Positions 7,062-64,000 of a stretch of 64,000 bases of DNA are shown here, piece after piece. The stretch is from a virus. A program made the position numbers and the translations under genes. The stretch is from positions 96,001-160,000 of the IMG/VR virus record IMGVR_UViG_3300025137_000014. One strand, given 5' to 3'. Below the pieces are notes generated by a model, which searched no databases, had not been told where the DNA came from, and saw only the letters and a program-made list of their open reading frames with translations. Each line of letters begins with the position of its first letter. The stretch's first letter is position 1.

Positions 7062-8621
7062 ATGGCAGATTTAACTAAAAAAGCATATCAAAAAACGAAG
7101 TTTAGTAATGCACAACTATTAGAATTTAGTAAGTGTGCAAATGATCCTTTTTATTTTTTAAACACTTATTTCAAAATACAACACCCTACTAAGGGTAGTA
7201 TGACATATGATGCTTATCAGTTTCAAAAAGGATTACTAAATTCTTATCATAATTATAGATTCTCTATTTCTATGCTCGGTAGACAAATGGGTAAATCCAC
7301 TACTGCGGCAGGATATCTATTATGGTATGCGATGTTTATGCCAGACCAAACTATTCTAATTGCGGCACACAAATATTCAGGTGCTCAAGAAATTATGCAC
7401 AGAATTAGACATGCTTATGAATTATGTCCTGACCATATACGTGCTGGTGTTACAAGTTATAATAAAGGTAGTTTAGAATTTGATAACGGTTCACGTATTA
7501 TAGCACAAGCAACAACAGAAAATACAGGTCGTGGTCTTTCAATTTCTTTATTATACTGTGATGAGTTTGCATTCGTTAGACCTAATATTGCAAAAGAGTT
7601 TTGGACTTCAATATCTCCTACTCTAGCAACAGGTGGTAAAGCGATTATTACATCAACACCAAACTTAGATGATGACCAGTTCGCTCTCATATGGAGTGGT
7701 GCTAATAAAAATATAGATGAACACGGTAATGAAAAAGAAACAGGCATTAACGGCTTTAAACCATTTAAAGCTATTTGGAATGAACATCCTGATAGGGATG
7801 AAATTTGGTCTAAAGAAGAAAGAACACGTGTAGGTGAAGAAAGATTTTTACGTGAGCATGAATGTCAGTTTATTGCGTTTGATGAAACGTTAGTAGATAG
7901 TATAAAATTATCTCATTTAGAAGGTAAAGAACCTATTATGAAAACTGGGCAAGTAAGATGGTATGAAAAAATTAATAAAAATTCTACTTACGTTGTCGGT
8001 CTTGACCCTGCTATGGGTACGGGTGGAGACTATTCAGCGATTGAAGTTTGGTCATTGCCAGAACTAATACAAGTAGCAGAATGGCAGAGTAATCGTACAG
8101 ATATGAGAGGTCAAGTAAAAACAATGCATGATATTCTAACTATCTTAAATGATGAAATGAATGAATTAGGAAATAAAAGACCAGAAATATATTGGTCAGT
8201 AGAAAACAATTCATTAGGAGAAGCCGCTCTTATAGTCATTGAAGAAATGGATGAAGATAAATTTCCAGGTGAATTTTTACATGAACCAAAGAAAAAAGGA
8301 ATTCAAAAAGCAATAAGAAAAGGATTTACAACATCTTACAAAACTAAAATAACTGCATGTATGAAACTAAAGTCATGGATTGAGAGTGATAAAATGGTAC
8401 CACTAAGTAAGAATTTAATTAGAGAATGTAAGACATTTATTGCAAAAGGCAAGAGTTATGAAGCAAAATCAGGCGAAACAGATGATTTAGTAAGTGCTAC
8501 ATTGCTTTGTATCAGACAAATTCAAGTAATATCACGATTCGATGAAGAATTTATGGATACGTTAGGAGAATCTCTTGATAGTGAAGATGCTTTTAATGAC
8601 CCACTTCCTGTGCTATTTTGA
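7062..8621 (+). CDS. terL: terminase large subunit (T4 gp17-like)
   Basis: GRQMGKST Walker A, LLYCDEFAF Walker B, TSTPN, GLDPAMG nuclease motif, DDLV. Confidence 0.95.
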   Translation: MADLTKKAYQKTKFSNAQLLEFSKCANDPFYFLNTYFKIQHPTKGSMTYDAYQFQKGLLNSYHNYRFSISMLGRQMGKSTTAAGYLLWYAMFMPDQTILIAAHKYSGAQEIMHRIRHAYELCPDHIRAGVTSYNKGSLEFDNGSRIIAQATTENTGRGLSISLLYCDEFAFVRPNIAKEFWTSISPTLATGGKAIITSTPNLDDDQFALIWSGANKNIDEHGNEKETGINGFKPFKAIWNEHPDRDEIWSKEERTRVGEERFLREHECQFIAFDETLVDSIKLSHLEGKEPIMKTGQVRWYEKINKNSTYVVGLDPAMGTGGDYSAIEVWSLPELIQVAEWQSNRTDMRGQVKTMHDILTILNDEMNELGNKRPEIYWSVENNSLGEAALIVIEEMDEDKFPGEFLHEPKKKGIQKAIRKGFTTSYKTKITACMKLKSWIESDKMVPLSKNLIRECKTFIAKGKSYEAKSGETDDLVSATLLCIRQIQVISRFDEEFMDTLGESLDSEDAFNDPLPVLF

Positions 8622-24649: not shown

Positions 24650-24726
24650 GGACCCGTAGTTCAGCTGGATAGAACGCTTGTCTACGAAACAAGAGGTCAG
24701 AGGTTCGAATCCTCTCGGGTCCGCCA
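24650..24726 (+). tRNA. tRNA-Arg(ACG)
   Basis: Acceptor GGACCCG/CGGGTCC, D arm, anticodon stem CTTGT/ACAAG with loop CTACGAA, GGTTCGAATCC T arm, encoded CCA. Confidence 0.95.
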
Positions 24727-34677: not shown

Positions 34678-35328
34678 ATGAAAAAAGTTAAAAAAATAAT
34701 GAGTACAATTATACCAGAACCCAAAGAACAACCGGCACCGACGCCTCCACCTCCGATGCCAACTCCACCAGTTCCGCCAAAGCCGGCAGGTGAGTTCTTA
34801 AGAGAAAATGGTGTATTGTTTATGGATAAAGAATTTAATCAAGATAACTGTATGCCTCTTGTAAAAATGATTGTTGAATATAATTTGATGCCAAAAGATA
34901 AAGCACCAGAAGTTATTCACTTGTATATCAATTCACCAGGTGGGTATGTAGATAGTTGTATGCATCTAATTGATACTATCAAGCAATCACGTATACCAGT
35001 ATATACGTATGGAATGGGGTCTATTGCAAGTTGTGGTGTCATGTTAATGATGAGTGGTGCTAAAGGACATCGTTATGTTACACAAAATACCGCAGTCATG
35101 TCACATGAATTTTCAGGTGGTACAAAAGGTCAATATCACGATATGGTAGAAAGTCGTAAACATATGGACTGGACTAACGAGAAATTAATGGAACACTATA
35201 TGAAATGTACAGGCAAGACACAAGCATACATTCGTAAACATATGTTAGCACCTAAGACAGACCATTGGCTTACACCAGAAGAAGCAGTCAAGCATGGTAT
35301 CGCAGACGAATTAATTACTACTTACTAA
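34678..35328 (+). CDS. clpP: ClpP-family protease with Pro-rich N-terminus
   Basis: YINSPGG, IASCG (Ser), MSHEF (His), TDHWLTPEEA (Asp), GIAD. Confidence 0.9.
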   Translation: MKKVKKIMSTIIPEPKEQPAPTPPPPMPTPPVPPKPAGEFLRENGVLFMDKEFNQDNCMPLVKMIVEYNLMPKDKAPEVIHLYINSPGGYVDSCMHLIDTIKQSRIPVYTYGMGSIASCGVMLMMSGAKGHRYVTQNTAVMSHEFSGGTKGQYHDMVESRKHMDWTNEKLMEHYMKCTGKTQAYIRKHMLAPKTDHWLTPEEAVKHGIADELITTY

Positions 35329-56956: not shown

Positions 56957-57354
56957 AGAAATTAGTTTGGAAAGTACATCTAACAGCATCAGATGTTAAT
57001 GCTGGTGGGACAGTTAGTGGTGGTAGATTATTTGATATGGCAGATGTTTCTGCTTATACAATGATTAATGAAACGTTTACTAGTATTAGACCAGATTTGT
57101 CAGTTGTAACAAATGGTGCAAATGTAAAATTTATTGCGCCTGCACATGCTTATGGATTTGTAGAATCTTTTGCAGAAATAGTTGAAGTTACTCCCGCAAA
57201 GATAAATGTACTTATTACTATGAATTATAGACAAAATAAAAATTTAGATTGGTATAAATGTTTTGAGGGCATATTCAGTTTCACTTGTTTAAATGCTGAT
57301 ACTCGTAAAGTTTATAAAATGACAAAAGAGGATATGAATGAAATTCAAAGCTAA
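56953..57354 (+). CDS. hotdog-fold acyl-CoA thioesterase (YciA-like)
   Basis: DVNAGGTVSGGRLFDMADVSA, VKFIAP. Confidence 0.8.
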   Translation: MKKLVWKVHLTASDVNAGGTVSGGRLFDMADVSAYTMINETFTSIRPDLSVVTNGANVKFIAPAHAYGFVESFAEIVEVTPAKINVLITMNYRQNKNLDWYKCFEGIFSFTCLNADTRKVYKMTKEDMNEIQS

Positions 57355-58258
57355 AGTATTAGTAACAGGTGGCGCAGGTTATATAGGCACAGAATTGGTT
57401 AAACAATTACTTGACAATGGATATGATGTAACAATATTAGATAAAAAAGAAAAGCCTGAATTAACTAGTAGAGTAAAATATATTCAAGGAGATTTACAGA
57501 ATGCCGCACGTTGCGTTATGGCATGTGCAGGTCAAGAATTTGTTATACACCTAGCGGCTAAACCTCGTATACCAGAGAGTTTTATAAACCCTGATGAATA
57601 TTTTGATAATAATGTTACTGGTACACGTAACATACTAACAGCCGCAAGTGCAGTTGGTGTAAGAAAGTTTGTATTTGCTAGTAGTAGTTCTATCTATGGT
57701 AATAATCAAACACCTCACAAACCGTATCATAAACCTGATCCACTAAACTATTATGCAATGACAAAAATATTTGGTGAGCATTTGTGTAAACAATATAAAA
57801 ACATGTTTGGATTGACATATAACATATTACGTTTCTTTACAGTGTATTCAGAAAATCAACCAAACTCTAATACTGGTGGATTAATGATAGGTAAATTTGG
57901 TAGACTTGCTAAAGAAGGAAGTCCGCTAACAATACACGGAGACGGAGAATATAAAAGAGATTACATACATGTTTCTGATGTAGCAAAAGCATGTATTTCA
58001 AGTATTGAGTCAAAAGTAAAAAATGAAATATTTAACGTTGGAACAGGAACTAATATTTCAGTTAATAAAGTAGTAGACATTATAAGAGAGTTTAAAGATG
58101 TTAATGTAACACATGAAGAAAATCCAAGAGGTTATGCAAAAGATACATTAGCTGATGTAAGTAAAGCAAAGAAATTATTAGGGTGGGAAGCTAAAATCAA
58201 TCAAGTAGAAGGAATAAGACAAACGTATAAGGAGATATTTAATGAACAAACCGATTGA
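57338..58258 (+). CDS. NAD-dependent epimerase/dehydratase
   Basis: TGGAGYIG, HLAA, SSSSIYG, YAMTK, RDYIHV. Confidence 0.92.
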   Translation: MKFKAKVLVTGGAGYIGTELVKQLLDNGYDVTILDKKEKPELTSRVKYIQGDLQNAARCVMACAGQEFVIHLAAKPRIPESFINPDEYFDNNVTGTRNILTAASAVGVRKFVFASSSSIYGNNQTPHKPYHKPDPLNYYAMTKIFGEHLCKQYKNMFGLTYNILRFFTVYSENQPNSNTGGLMIGKFGRLAKEGSPLTIHGDGEYKRDYIHVSDVAKACISSIESKVKNEIFNVGTGTNISVNKVVDIIREFKDVNVTHEENPRGYAKDTLADVSKAKKLLGWEAKINQVEGIRQTYKEIFNEQTD

Positions 58259-59529: not shown

Positions 59530-60442
59530 TAAACTAAAATTACTCATAATAGGACCTGGCGCGGCCAGTAATTTTATTAGTTCAAGAATAATAAGTGCAG
59601 ATACAATACAAATCGATTCAGATACTAATGAATATTATAATGTGAGAGACTACAGTGAAATGACTGATTCAGCATTATTAGATTATATCAATAAAAATAC
59701 AGTTAAGAAACCACACACTATTCATAGTTTAGAACGTGTTGCTAAATTATTAGATTCATTTGATTGGGAAACAGGAGAGCATAATTCTACTGTGCAAGGA
59801 CATGAATATACTATCGCAGTAGAGAAAATTAAAGAATCGTGGGAAACATGTGAGCATAACAGAATGGCAGTTTTTTGGCTTGAATCACTCTACAAAGGCA
59901 TGTATCAGTTTAAAAATATTAGTAAGCATATTGATATTTTAAATAATGCTGATTGGTGGAAAGAAGCAGAGAGATTCATATTTGATTGGCAAATTGCAGG
60001 ATGGTCAATGCACTATAAAGAAGATAGTAAGTTGCATTCTATCGAACATTATTTAAGTAAAAATGAAAAAATAAATGATAAAATGGCAGAAATAGTCAAC
60101 ATAGGGGTGTTACATGTAGACGGAACTACTACGTCCTTTATCACAGATATACTAAATATGAAACATATGTCTGAGAATATTAAAAATAATTTACCGCCGG
60201 TATCTACATCATTGCGTCCAAATACATATGAAATGGGCTGGGCTGATATAATATTTGATTATAAGAAGTTGTTCTTTTATAATGATCCTAAAGAACTATA
60301 TAATTTATTTAACTTTTTTGATAAGGGTAAATACTTTAAAGATAATGAGAAAAAAGAAATAAACGCATTTCGTGATTACCATATAAGAAACGTAAACTAT
60401 TATGTTGATAATTGGGAACAAATGAGCGAGGAGGCTAAATGA
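59516..60442 (+). CDS. hypothetical protein
   Basis: 308 aa, overlaps neighbours. Confidence 0.6.
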   Translation: MPKSDKLKLLIIGPGAASNFISSRIISADTIQIDSDTNEYYNVRDYSEMTDSALLDYINKNTVKKPHTIHSLERVAKLLDSFDWETGEHNSTVQGHEYTIAVEKIKESWETCEHNRMAVFWLESLYKGMYQFKNISKHIDILNNADWWKEAERFIFDWQIAGWSMHYKEDSKLHSIEHYLSKNEKINDKMAEIVNIGVLHVDGTTTSFITDILNMKHMSENIKNNLPPVSTSLRPNTYEMGWADIIFDYKKLFFYNDPKELYNLFNFFDKGKYFKDNEKKEINAFRDYHIRNVNYYVDNWEQMSEEAK

Positions 60443-60954
60443 CAGTTTTAACACTGATTGATGAAACAGACAAAAGACTAAGACAAGTATGTACTAAACA
60501 CAAGATAGATGATGCTACAGAAAAGCTAGTATATGATATGATTGTAACTATGCAAGATAATGATGGTATTGGTCTGGCGGCACCACAGTTAGGTGTTATG
60601 GAACAGATATTTGTCATAGGCCATAAAGATGCAGGGTTTGTTGTTTGTATAAACCCAAGTTGGACTCCAACTACAGATGCCAAGTTAGAAAAGTTTGTAG
60701 AAGGCTGTTTAAGTTTTCCGCATTTAGCATTGAATATAGAAAGATATAATCAAGTACATTGTACATTTACTAATTTGCAAGGTGAAATACAAACTCGTTT
60801 ATTTAATGGAGTATGGGCTCAAGCAGTACAGCATGAACATGACCATTTAATGGGTATAACATTTGATAAAAGAGCAAAGACAAGTCAACTAAGCAGAGCA
60901 TTAGCAAAACGTAGAGAGAAATTAAAAAGAATTCAAAAGAGAAGCAATGATTAA
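60439..60954 (+). CDS. def: peptide deformylase
   Basis: GIGLAAPQLG, EGCLS, QHEHDH. Confidence 0.95.
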   Translation: MTVLTLIDETDKRLRQVCTKHKIDDATEKLVYDMIVTMQDNDGIGLAAPQLGVMEQIFVIGHKDAGFVVCINPSWTPTTDAKLEKFVEGCLSFPHLALNIERYNQVHCTFTNLQGEIQTRLFNGVWAQAVQHEHDHLMGITFDKRAKTSQLSRALAKRREKLKRIQKRSND

Positions 60955-63172: not shown

Positions 63173-63230
63173 ACAGAATATGATGCACAATTCGTGTGTT
63201 TTATTGTTTAATAAACTTAAGGAGGATGTA

Positions 63231-63584
63231 ATGAAAACATCAATTATTGGACTGCTAGTCGCAGTCTTTTTTTCTGCAAACGCAATGGCAGAAGAATCAA
63301 ATGTAACAACAAATATCGATTGGTCTTTAAAACTTGAAAGACAAGTAGAAGCACAAGCCAACACAGGCGAACTAATGGGTACTATGGCTGTTTTTGGACT
63401 AGACGTATCAGCAGGCGGTCTATGGAATATTGACAAAACAGGTGAAGACTTTATTGACATGAATAAAATTATGTTGAATGCAAGTCGTTCATTGTCTGAC
63501 AATGCAAGTGTCTATATAAAGAATGATTTTGATACTGATTGGGATAGAACTGAGTCAACTATTGGTCTACAGCTTACATTTTAA
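63231..63584 (+). CDS. secreted/outer-membrane beta-strand protein
   Basis: SD AAGGAGG; signal peptide ending ANAMA; alternating beta pattern; C-terminal Phe. Confidence 0.6.
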   Translation: MKTSIIGLLVAVFFSANAMAEESNVTTNIDWSLKLERQVEAQANTGELMGTMAVFGLDVSAGGLWNIDKTGEDFIDMNKIMLNASRSLSDNASVYIKNDFDTDWDRTESTIGLQLTF

Positions 63585-63588
63585 TTTG

Positions 63589-63617
63589 TTGACAAAAACA
63601 CCACTATAGTGTATAAA
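63589..63617 (+). promoter_or_regulatory. sigma70-type promoter for the tmRNA gene
   Basis: TTGACA-17-TATAAA. Confidence 0.8.
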
Positions 63618-63623
63618 TATAGA

Positions 63624-63910
63624 TGTTAACGTTGAAGCAACGTAGACACATACTGGACTGGGGGGCAGTACCCCACAGCTCCACCATAATTACTTTGTAG
63701 CGTAAAAACTACAAATTTACGGCATAGAGTAATTATGATGGGGCTGATATAGGATCGACAGGTGTGAAAGTGAAGTGGAGTTGACCGAGTGACTTCGTTA
63801 TTGGTCAAAAACTATAATTGCAAACGCAAATTATCAGCCAGAAATGGCAATGGCGGCCTAATTTAGGCACGTAGGGGTTGGTGACTTACCTGGCAACAGA
63901 AAAGTCATGT
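63624..63910 (+). ncRNA. ssrA: circularly permuted two-piece tmRNA; tag (A)ANANYQPEMAMAA
   Basis: Acceptor piece ends CAGCTCC-ACCA (63676-63686). Coding piece starts GGGGCTG (63740), giving a G3-U70 alanine identity pair. Pseudoknot at 63772-63808; tag ORF at 63820-63861. Outer ends approximate. Confidence 0.93.
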
Positions 63911-63938
63911 TTTATTTAGGAGTGGGTATTAATATCAT

Positions 63939-64000
63939 ATGGCATATGTAGTTACAGAGGATTGTATCAAATGTAAATACACAGATTGTGTAGAAGTTTG
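63939..64000 (+). CDS. fdxA: ferredoxin (FdxA, 7Fe type), 3'-truncated
   Basis: MAYVVTEDCIKCKYTDCVEV; SD AGGAG. Confidence 0.88.
   Translation, partial: MAYVVTEDCIKCKYTDCVEV

Follow-up and report, generated by a model that had tools for sequence, protein, structure and literature searches.

The window is a stretch of 64,000 nucleotides, corresponding to bases 96001-160000 of a 187,122-bp IMG/VR record. Close to its end, at 63625-63908 on the plus strand, ARAGORN and Rfam locate a circularly permuted tmRNA gene. ARAGORN calls it as permuted, the sole permuted tmRNA in the window, and gives its tag as ANANYQPEMAMAA. The Rfam model RF01849 (alpha_tmRNA) matches over its full length, model positions 1-355, with 122.1 bits (gathering threshold 50, E-value 9e-33). 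RF04321 (tmRNA_permuted) scores 117.8 bits against a threshold of 47, over model positions 1-213. At 41% GC, the gene is AT-rich. The original prediction, which had been made from the letters alone, was of a phage-encoded, permuted two-piece tmRNA with its own tag and a complete architecture. ARAGORN and the alpha-type model, the checks it had proposed, both agree with it.

Permuted here means that the two ends of the acceptor stem are encoded in reversed order. Both a direct reading of the sequence and ARAGORN place CAGCUCC-ACCA (63676-86) upstream of GGGGCUG (63740-46). The acceptor piece, 63625-63686, is the 3' half of the tRNA-like domain, as delineated by the Rfam alignments, ARAGORN's 3' tRNA domain and pair counts. 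It starts with one strand of a helix here called P2-outer (GUUAAC, 63625-30), followed by a local hairpin (63631-41) and a strand of helix P2a (63649-55). Then come the T arm (63659-75; UGGGG/CCCCA around the loop GGCAGUA), the acceptor 3' strand CAGCUCC (63676-82) and ACCA (63683-86). An intervening segment of 53 nt, 63687-63739, folds as a long hairpin in continuation of the acceptor stem and is predicted to be removed.

The 5' part of the coding piece runs from 63740 to 63819 and ends in an A-rich leader before the resume codon. It opens with the acceptor 5' strand GGGGCUG (63740-46), of which G3 pairs with U63680, and carries a conserved AUAGGAUCGAC. The second strands of P2a (63759-64) and P2-outer (GUUGAC, 63780-85) follow, and then a hairpin in the PK1 region (UGACU/GGUCA, 63790-94 and 63803-07). 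The tag frame takes up 63820-63861 and overlaps a hairpin around its stop codon, GCCUA/UAGGC, at 63856-63868. The 3' terminal structure of the coding piece spans 63877-63917. It holds the helix GUGACUU/AAGUCAU (63881-87 and 63902-08), a possible pseudoknot partner GUUG/CAAC (63877-80 and 63894-97) and, after the helix, a U-rich tail (63909-17). All of these features lie on the plus strand.

The GGCAGUA loop, CAGCUCC-ACCA, the 5' end GGGGCUG and an intervening segment of 53 nt closed by AUAAUUACU/AGUAAUUAU had all been read off the sequence beforehand, and each is exact.

The borders of the gene needed adjusting. ARAGORN gives 63593-63952, and its 3' end was rejected since it overruns the ATG at 63939 of a ferredoxin gene. 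Because the covarying structure described below stops at 63908, the 3' boundary is put at about 63908-63917. A consensus scan called no terminator after the gene. The ferredoxin itself is a 112-residue 7Fe-type protein (Fer4 + DUF3470) encoded from window position 63939 to 64000 and on into L002:1864-2202. Its start lies 30 nt past the tmRNA structure, and it is found at the same place in two relatives, L007 and L026.

The tag frame, as called by ARAGORN, resumes at a GCA (Ala) codon at 63820, and the resume consensus given by ARAGORN is UAUAAUUGCAAACGCAAA. It ends GCG GCC TAA, with the stop codon at 63859-61. The resulting peptide ends in AMAA, which is of the hydrophobic-Ala-Ala type. The tag is absent from ARAGORN's tag list. 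Tags of relatives fit the pattern AN[ADEN]N[YF].P...A[LMI]AA, and their terminal Ala codons differ synonymously at the third position. About 50 viral contigs conserve this tag family, again with synonymous changes.

Base pairing was assessed by aligning 14 distinct phage relatives and counting the pairs. Two controls were used: sliding the partner columns, and 500 shuffles. In the corrected structure, 92.7% of cells are paired, versus 36-44% with slid partner columns. At 22 pairs both sides have changed, and none of the 500 shuffles matched the observed values. The gene also folds well by itself, with a single-sequence z-score of -5.8. Its minimum-free-energy fold recovers the T arm, P1 running into the intervening hairpin, P2a and the stop-codon hairpin.

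The 7-bp acceptor stem P1, with its G·U pair G3·U70, is the same in all 14 sequences. The T arm (5-bp stem, 7-nt loop) is 100% paired with 3 covarying pairs, and P2a 98.8% with 2 pairs changed on both sides. P2-outer, which joins the two pieces, is 97.6% paired and has 2 covarying pairs. For the helix that closes the intervening segment (63686-94/63728-36), pairing reaches 94.4%, with covariation at 5 of 9 pairs; the interior of the segment, in contrast, varies freely in both length and sequence among relatives. A closing helix that covaries in this way is consistent with a processing substrate.

Further downstream, the hairpin in the PK1 region is 90% paired with 2 covarying pairs. A candidate second PK1 stem has only C63786-G63797 and G63787-C63796 as conserved pairs. 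For this region the original prediction had proposed an H-type pseudoknot from gaagt/acttc and ttgacc/ggtcaa. These stems are paired in only 65.7% and 78.6% of cells, and their central A-U and G-C pairs occur in just 1-2 of the 14 sequences. In addition, ttgacc overlaps and so clashes with the covarying P2-outer helix. The proposed stems were therefore replaced by the covarying hairpin at 63790-63807.

The stop-codon hairpin, which had also been anticipated, is present and 88% paired, with a compensatory change (GCUUA/UAAGC) in L007 and L026. A terminal pseudoknot had been called probable, and of this one half stands firmly: in the 3' helix, which contains the proposed tgactt/aagtca, each of the 7 pairs has changed on both sides among relatives. 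The other half, the 4-bp stem GUUG/CAAC, is 82% paired and shows no covariation.

The DNA around the gene is that of a large marine phage. CheckV estimates the 187-kb record to be about 51% complete, from which a genome of roughly 350 kb would follow. The window encodes a large terminase subunit (TerL), a virion protein, a UvsX-like recombinase, a class Ia ribonucleotide reductase and a DnaB-like helicase. The nearest TerL matches are those of PA5oct (55% identity), Atu_ph07 (51%), Phosso (50%) and Vibrio phage 2.275.O (45%). A few kb upstream of the tmRNA gene there are genes for a peptide deformylase (60439-60954) and an NAD-dependent sugar epimerase/dehydratase (57338-58258). A tRNA-Arg(ACG) at 24650-24726 is the only tRNA in the 187 kb, an unusually low number for a jumbo phage, given that cultured relatives carry 33-66.

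The gene is also inherited within this lineage. A contig with a 94%-identical TerL carries a near-twin tmRNA, which is 87% identical and has the tag ANANYEPEMALAA. A 61%-identical relative likewise carries a tmRNA. In two relatives, collinearity with the contig extends over more than 13 kb surrounding the gene; identity there is 77-88%. The 187-kb contig holds no tyrosine integrase (PF00589). The gene thus lies in a bona fide phage genome, and not in a prophage-host junction or misjoin.

Two-piece tmRNA was reportedly described in Caulobacter, by Keiler, Shapiro and Williams in 2000. The phage gene shares much with this alphaproteobacterial type. The order of acceptor piece, intervening segment and coding piece is the same. 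Also shared are a GGCnGUA T loop, an encoded CCA, G3·U70, the GGAUCGAC motif, a tag with an AN.N start and a hydrophobic-AA end, and a conserved 3' GGCAACAGAAA element. There are differences too. Unlike its alphaproteobacterial counterparts, the gene is phage-borne and AT-rich, is preceded by the phage's own TATAAATA box, and has no smpB beside it or elsewhere in the contig. P2b of the alphaproteobacterial model aligns poorly, and a short covarying helix plus the local hairpin stand in its place.

The original prediction had taken known phage tmRNAs to be one-piece, which would make a permuted copy notable. This does not hold: two-piece phage tmRNAs have been published, and the present gene is a further example. 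PMC9004378 (Buchholz et al. 2022) distinguishes 53 permuted types in a set of 133 unique phage tmRNAs, with marine or aquatic phages as the source of 50 of them. It describes the two-piece ssrA of phage Melnitz, shows that 17 of 47 Melnitz-like contigs carry a permuted tmRNA and reports another in Mosig. In its Table S1, permuted tmRNAs are also entered for HTVC008M, phiCbK-like Caulobacter phages and S-CAM1. The permuted calls for Melnitz and HTVC008M were confirmed in the present analysis. In addition, about 50 permuted tmRNAs were found among 69 IMG/VR loci that had been fetched with two short patterns.

Melnitz and HTVC008M resemble our phage in that they are lytic phages with a permuted alpha-type ssrA and no smpB, and with similar tags (ANDNYVPVDYALAA for Melnitz and ANFNEYALAA for HTVC008M). 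Sequence similarity is modest however. A blastn search against 50,697 phage records yields a single match, of 102 nt at 76% identity, to the core of the 5' coding piece of Melnitz SsrA; overall, the Melnitz tmRNA is only about 56% identical. With 8 kb of flanking DNA as query, only short matches to HTVC008M and Melnitz are found among these records. The carrier also differs, being a jumbo phage whose terminase groups with those of PA5oct, Phosso and Atu_ph07, and not a T4-like phage of the Kyanoviridae. Unlike in Melnitz and Mosig, no glutamine riboswitch is attached: none was found at E ≤ 1 within 3.3 kb around the tmRNA gene. The Melnitz proteins gp33, gp59, SSB, ThyX and PhoH have no tblastn match in the phage contig.

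The Sinorhizobium jumbo phages AP-J-162, which is in culture, and its relative Phosso belong to the same broad terminase clade as the carrier. They differ from it in coming from soil, in their size of about 470 kb and in their 40-66 tRNAs, against a single tRNA in 187 kb. According to PMC11242549, AP-J-162 has one tmRNA, a clpX gene beside that for IF-3, several Clp ORFs and Hsp20. That paper is silent on the form of the tmRNA and on any link between tmRNA and Clp. In Phosso (L213, PV764938.1 349553-350242) the alpha_tmRNA model matches with 108 bits. Since this match spans 690 nt and ARAGORN makes no call there, it points to a permuted tmRNA whose insertion is unusually long.

The type of tmRNA had furthermore been taken to indicate the class of the host. 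It is only a weak hint, because Melnitz, with its alpha-type tmRNA, infects OM43, a host outside the Alphaproteobacteria (PMC9004378). A search of bacterial genomes with the pattern of the T arm and acceptor stem leads, among the matches listed, mostly to gut Alphaproteobacteria (Enterousia) and to contigs of Saccharibacteria. The core shared with the gut Alphaproteobacteria measures 33-45 nt, and there is no longer bacterial match among those listed. When the gene is compared by BLAST with 401 sampled genomes of Alphaproteobacteria, only stretches of 30-58 nt match, mostly in the tRNA-like core. Bacterial tags at matching loci (AANDNVRLAMAA and others) are unlike the tag family of the phage.

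The Saccharibacteria matches are a curiosity in their own right. Among those listed, L075, L145 and about 18 other loci from Saccharibacteria MAGs have the alpha-like tmRNA 3' end GGACCGGGGGGCRGTACCCCGCAGCTCCACCA and a GGCRGUA T loop. ARAGORN calls no tmRNA at these loci, so they may hold a form that it misses.

Directly upstream of the gene, a promoter-like box TATAAATA occupies 63612-63619 on the plus strand, five bases before G63625. A similar box is common to the phage set in the alignment. Of 15 aligned relatives, 12 retain the core of the box, (T)ATAAATA, and the other three have one-base variants; the flanks vary. ATAAATA occurs 58 times on the plus strand of the 187-kb contig, and 32 of these copies fall in the 5.4% of the DNA that is intergenic. 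The usual form of the motif is (T)GATAAATA(c), found 20-60 nt before the starts of ORFs, with the virion-protein gene among them. Examples can be seen at window positions 8621, 15988, 38743, 45512 and 58647.

This motif is probably the main (late-type) promoter class of the phage. Given that it recurs before ORFs throughout the genome, the tmRNA would be driven by the phage's own promoter class. The box also resembles the T4 late-promoter consensus, the geometry of which would put the first transcribed base on 63625, which is the first paired base of the structure. This suggests a start site at or near 63625. Late expression may be supposed from this same likeness to T4, which is its sole basis.

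Four marine metatranscriptomes contain parts of the stretch as shallow contigs of depth 2-6, where DNA carry-over is possible. These contigs cover the ORF upstream as much as the tmRNA, and within them no joints or ends are seen. One RNA run contains the tmRNA gene of a relative with a different intervening segment. The upstream ORF, 63180-63584, encodes 134 residues with a signal-peptide-like N-terminus and matches nothing in Pfam. Of the DNA adjoining the tmRNA gene, this stretch alone lacks conservation in L007 and L026, the collinear relatives. It is covered by an exactly matching contig of 404 nt from a seawater RNA library.

Trans-translation needs protein partners. A search for smpB, which had been suggested along with the original prediction, gave no SmpB (PF01668) in the 187-kb contig, a result that speaks for about half of the genome. 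Five further phage records that have a tmRNA gave no SmpB either, and one of these is a complete genome of 165 kb. It follows that SmpB, AlaRS, EF-Tu and RNase P of the host must serve, on the assumption that host SmpB and AlaRS are compatible with the phage RNA.

Taken together, this is quite probably a functional ssrA gene, two-piece in the alphaproteobacterial manner, that a lineage of marine jumbo phages passes on vertically. Transcription from the ATAAATA-type phage promoter, starting at or near G63625, would yield a precursor of about 290 nt. In this precursor the hairpin formed by the 53-nt intervening segment would prolong the acceptor stem. Host RNase P would then cut 5' of G63740, and host 3'-end enzymes would trim the other side to the encoded CCA at 63686. 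The expected products are an acceptor piece of about 62 nt and a coding piece of about 170 nt, joined by P1, P2a and P2-outer.

Host AlaRS would charge this RNA by way of G3·U70, and host SmpB and EF-Tu would bring it to ribosomes stalled on broken mRNAs. Translation would resume at the GCA at 63820 and add ANANYQPEMAMAA, whose hydrophobic-Ala-Ala end should make the product a target of ClpXP. Ordinary trans-translation, boosted by the phage, is the most likely role. Its likely benefit would be the freeing of ribosomes and the recycling of amino acids while host mRNA is destroyed and virion proteins are made in bulk.

This reading can be extended, without being displaced, by supposing that the phage also supplies the reader of its tag. 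The tag would then be recognized mainly by a phage ClpX-ClpP, with ClpS alongside, independently of host proteases. The contig has the parts for this. About 8 kb downstream of the tmRNA gene it encodes a ClpX that scores 548.8 bits, against an NCBIfam equivalog cut-off of 370.75. Alignment to a solved ClpX indicates that the zinc finger and the GYVG pore, RKH and IGF loops are retained. The clpX gene forms an overlapping operon with infC (IF3) and rpsU (bS21), past the end of the window at G000:C1:168258-170323 (L218:8359-10424). Hsp20 (L218:11224-11661) and ClpS (G000 172589-172825) are near. Two genes of the ClpP family (PF00574) lie at window 34813-35319 and G000:C1:48253-48798, with 119 and 260 bits. 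The contig encodes no SspB adaptor. The spacing between tmRNA and clpX, about 8 kb, is preserved in both nearest relatives.

Co-occurrence is not coupling however. In three phage records, G406, G407 and G408, the DNA examined contains a tmRNA gene but lacks ClpX, and G406 is complete. T4-like HTVC008M and Melnitz have a tmRNA too, and no report ties either to a phage ClpX. AMAA is an ordinary ssrA-type end, which host ClpXP should also read, and the weaker ClpP-family match of 119 bits could be a prohead protease and not a second ClpP. A circuit in which the phage both tags and degrades is thus possible but should be regarded as improbable on present evidence.

A somewhat bolder version is more doubtful still. 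It holds that the tmRNA is one arm of a self-sufficient protein-quality-control module, with the phage's own tag (…PEMAMAA) and a ClpX-ClpP reader (plus ClpS) co-inherited some 8 kb apart. Such a module would, if real, remodel the proteome of the infected cell and recycle amino acids on the phage's schedule. No paper was found that ties a phage tmRNA to a phage ClpXP, and this coupling is the one angle that could raise interest in the locus.

Another suggestion is that the tmRNA mainly serves as a counter-defence, relieving the stalling that arises when abortive-infection systems or toxin RNases of the host cut mRNAs. It would fit the function of tmRNA as the general remedy for non-stop mRNAs, and the contig holds further translation helpers in IF3, bS21 and peptide deformylase. 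No specific defence system is indicated at the locus though, and the spread of the gene over unrelated marine phage types fits a general role better. This makes a primary role in counter-defence unlikely.

It is very improbable that the RNA is a decoy which blocks host trans-translation. There is a model for this in the tag-less tmRNA-like RNA of mycobacteriophage DS6A, as cited in PMC11915505. A decoy would need no conserved tag, whereas this gene keeps, intact and conserved, its tag frame with the resume and stop codons, its G3·U70 pair and its CCA, and the changes in the tag are synonymous.

Finally, tmRNA genes are common sites of prophage integration, as is also discussed in PMC9004378, which might make the gene a host fragment, left by imprecise excision at ssrA or joined in assembly. 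This can be dismissed almost entirely, because the gene is complete and not a 3' fragment, has the phage's own promoter motif upstream and phage genes on both flanks within one contig, is collinear in the contigs of two independent relatives, is inherited along with a jumbo-phage TerL, lies in a contig without a PF00589 integrase, and is matched in none of the 401 sampled alphaproteobacterial genomes beyond the tRNA-like core of 33-45 nt.

The preferred reading, that of a working, vertically inherited two-piece ssrA, has consequences for annotation as well as for biology. It comes with corrected helices and boundaries for a subfamily of phage tmRNAs. It also carries a caution, in that an alpha-type tmRNA alone does not give the class of the host. 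Beyond this, two-piece tmRNAs appear as a regular accessory of marine phages, one that extends into a lineage of jumbo phages.
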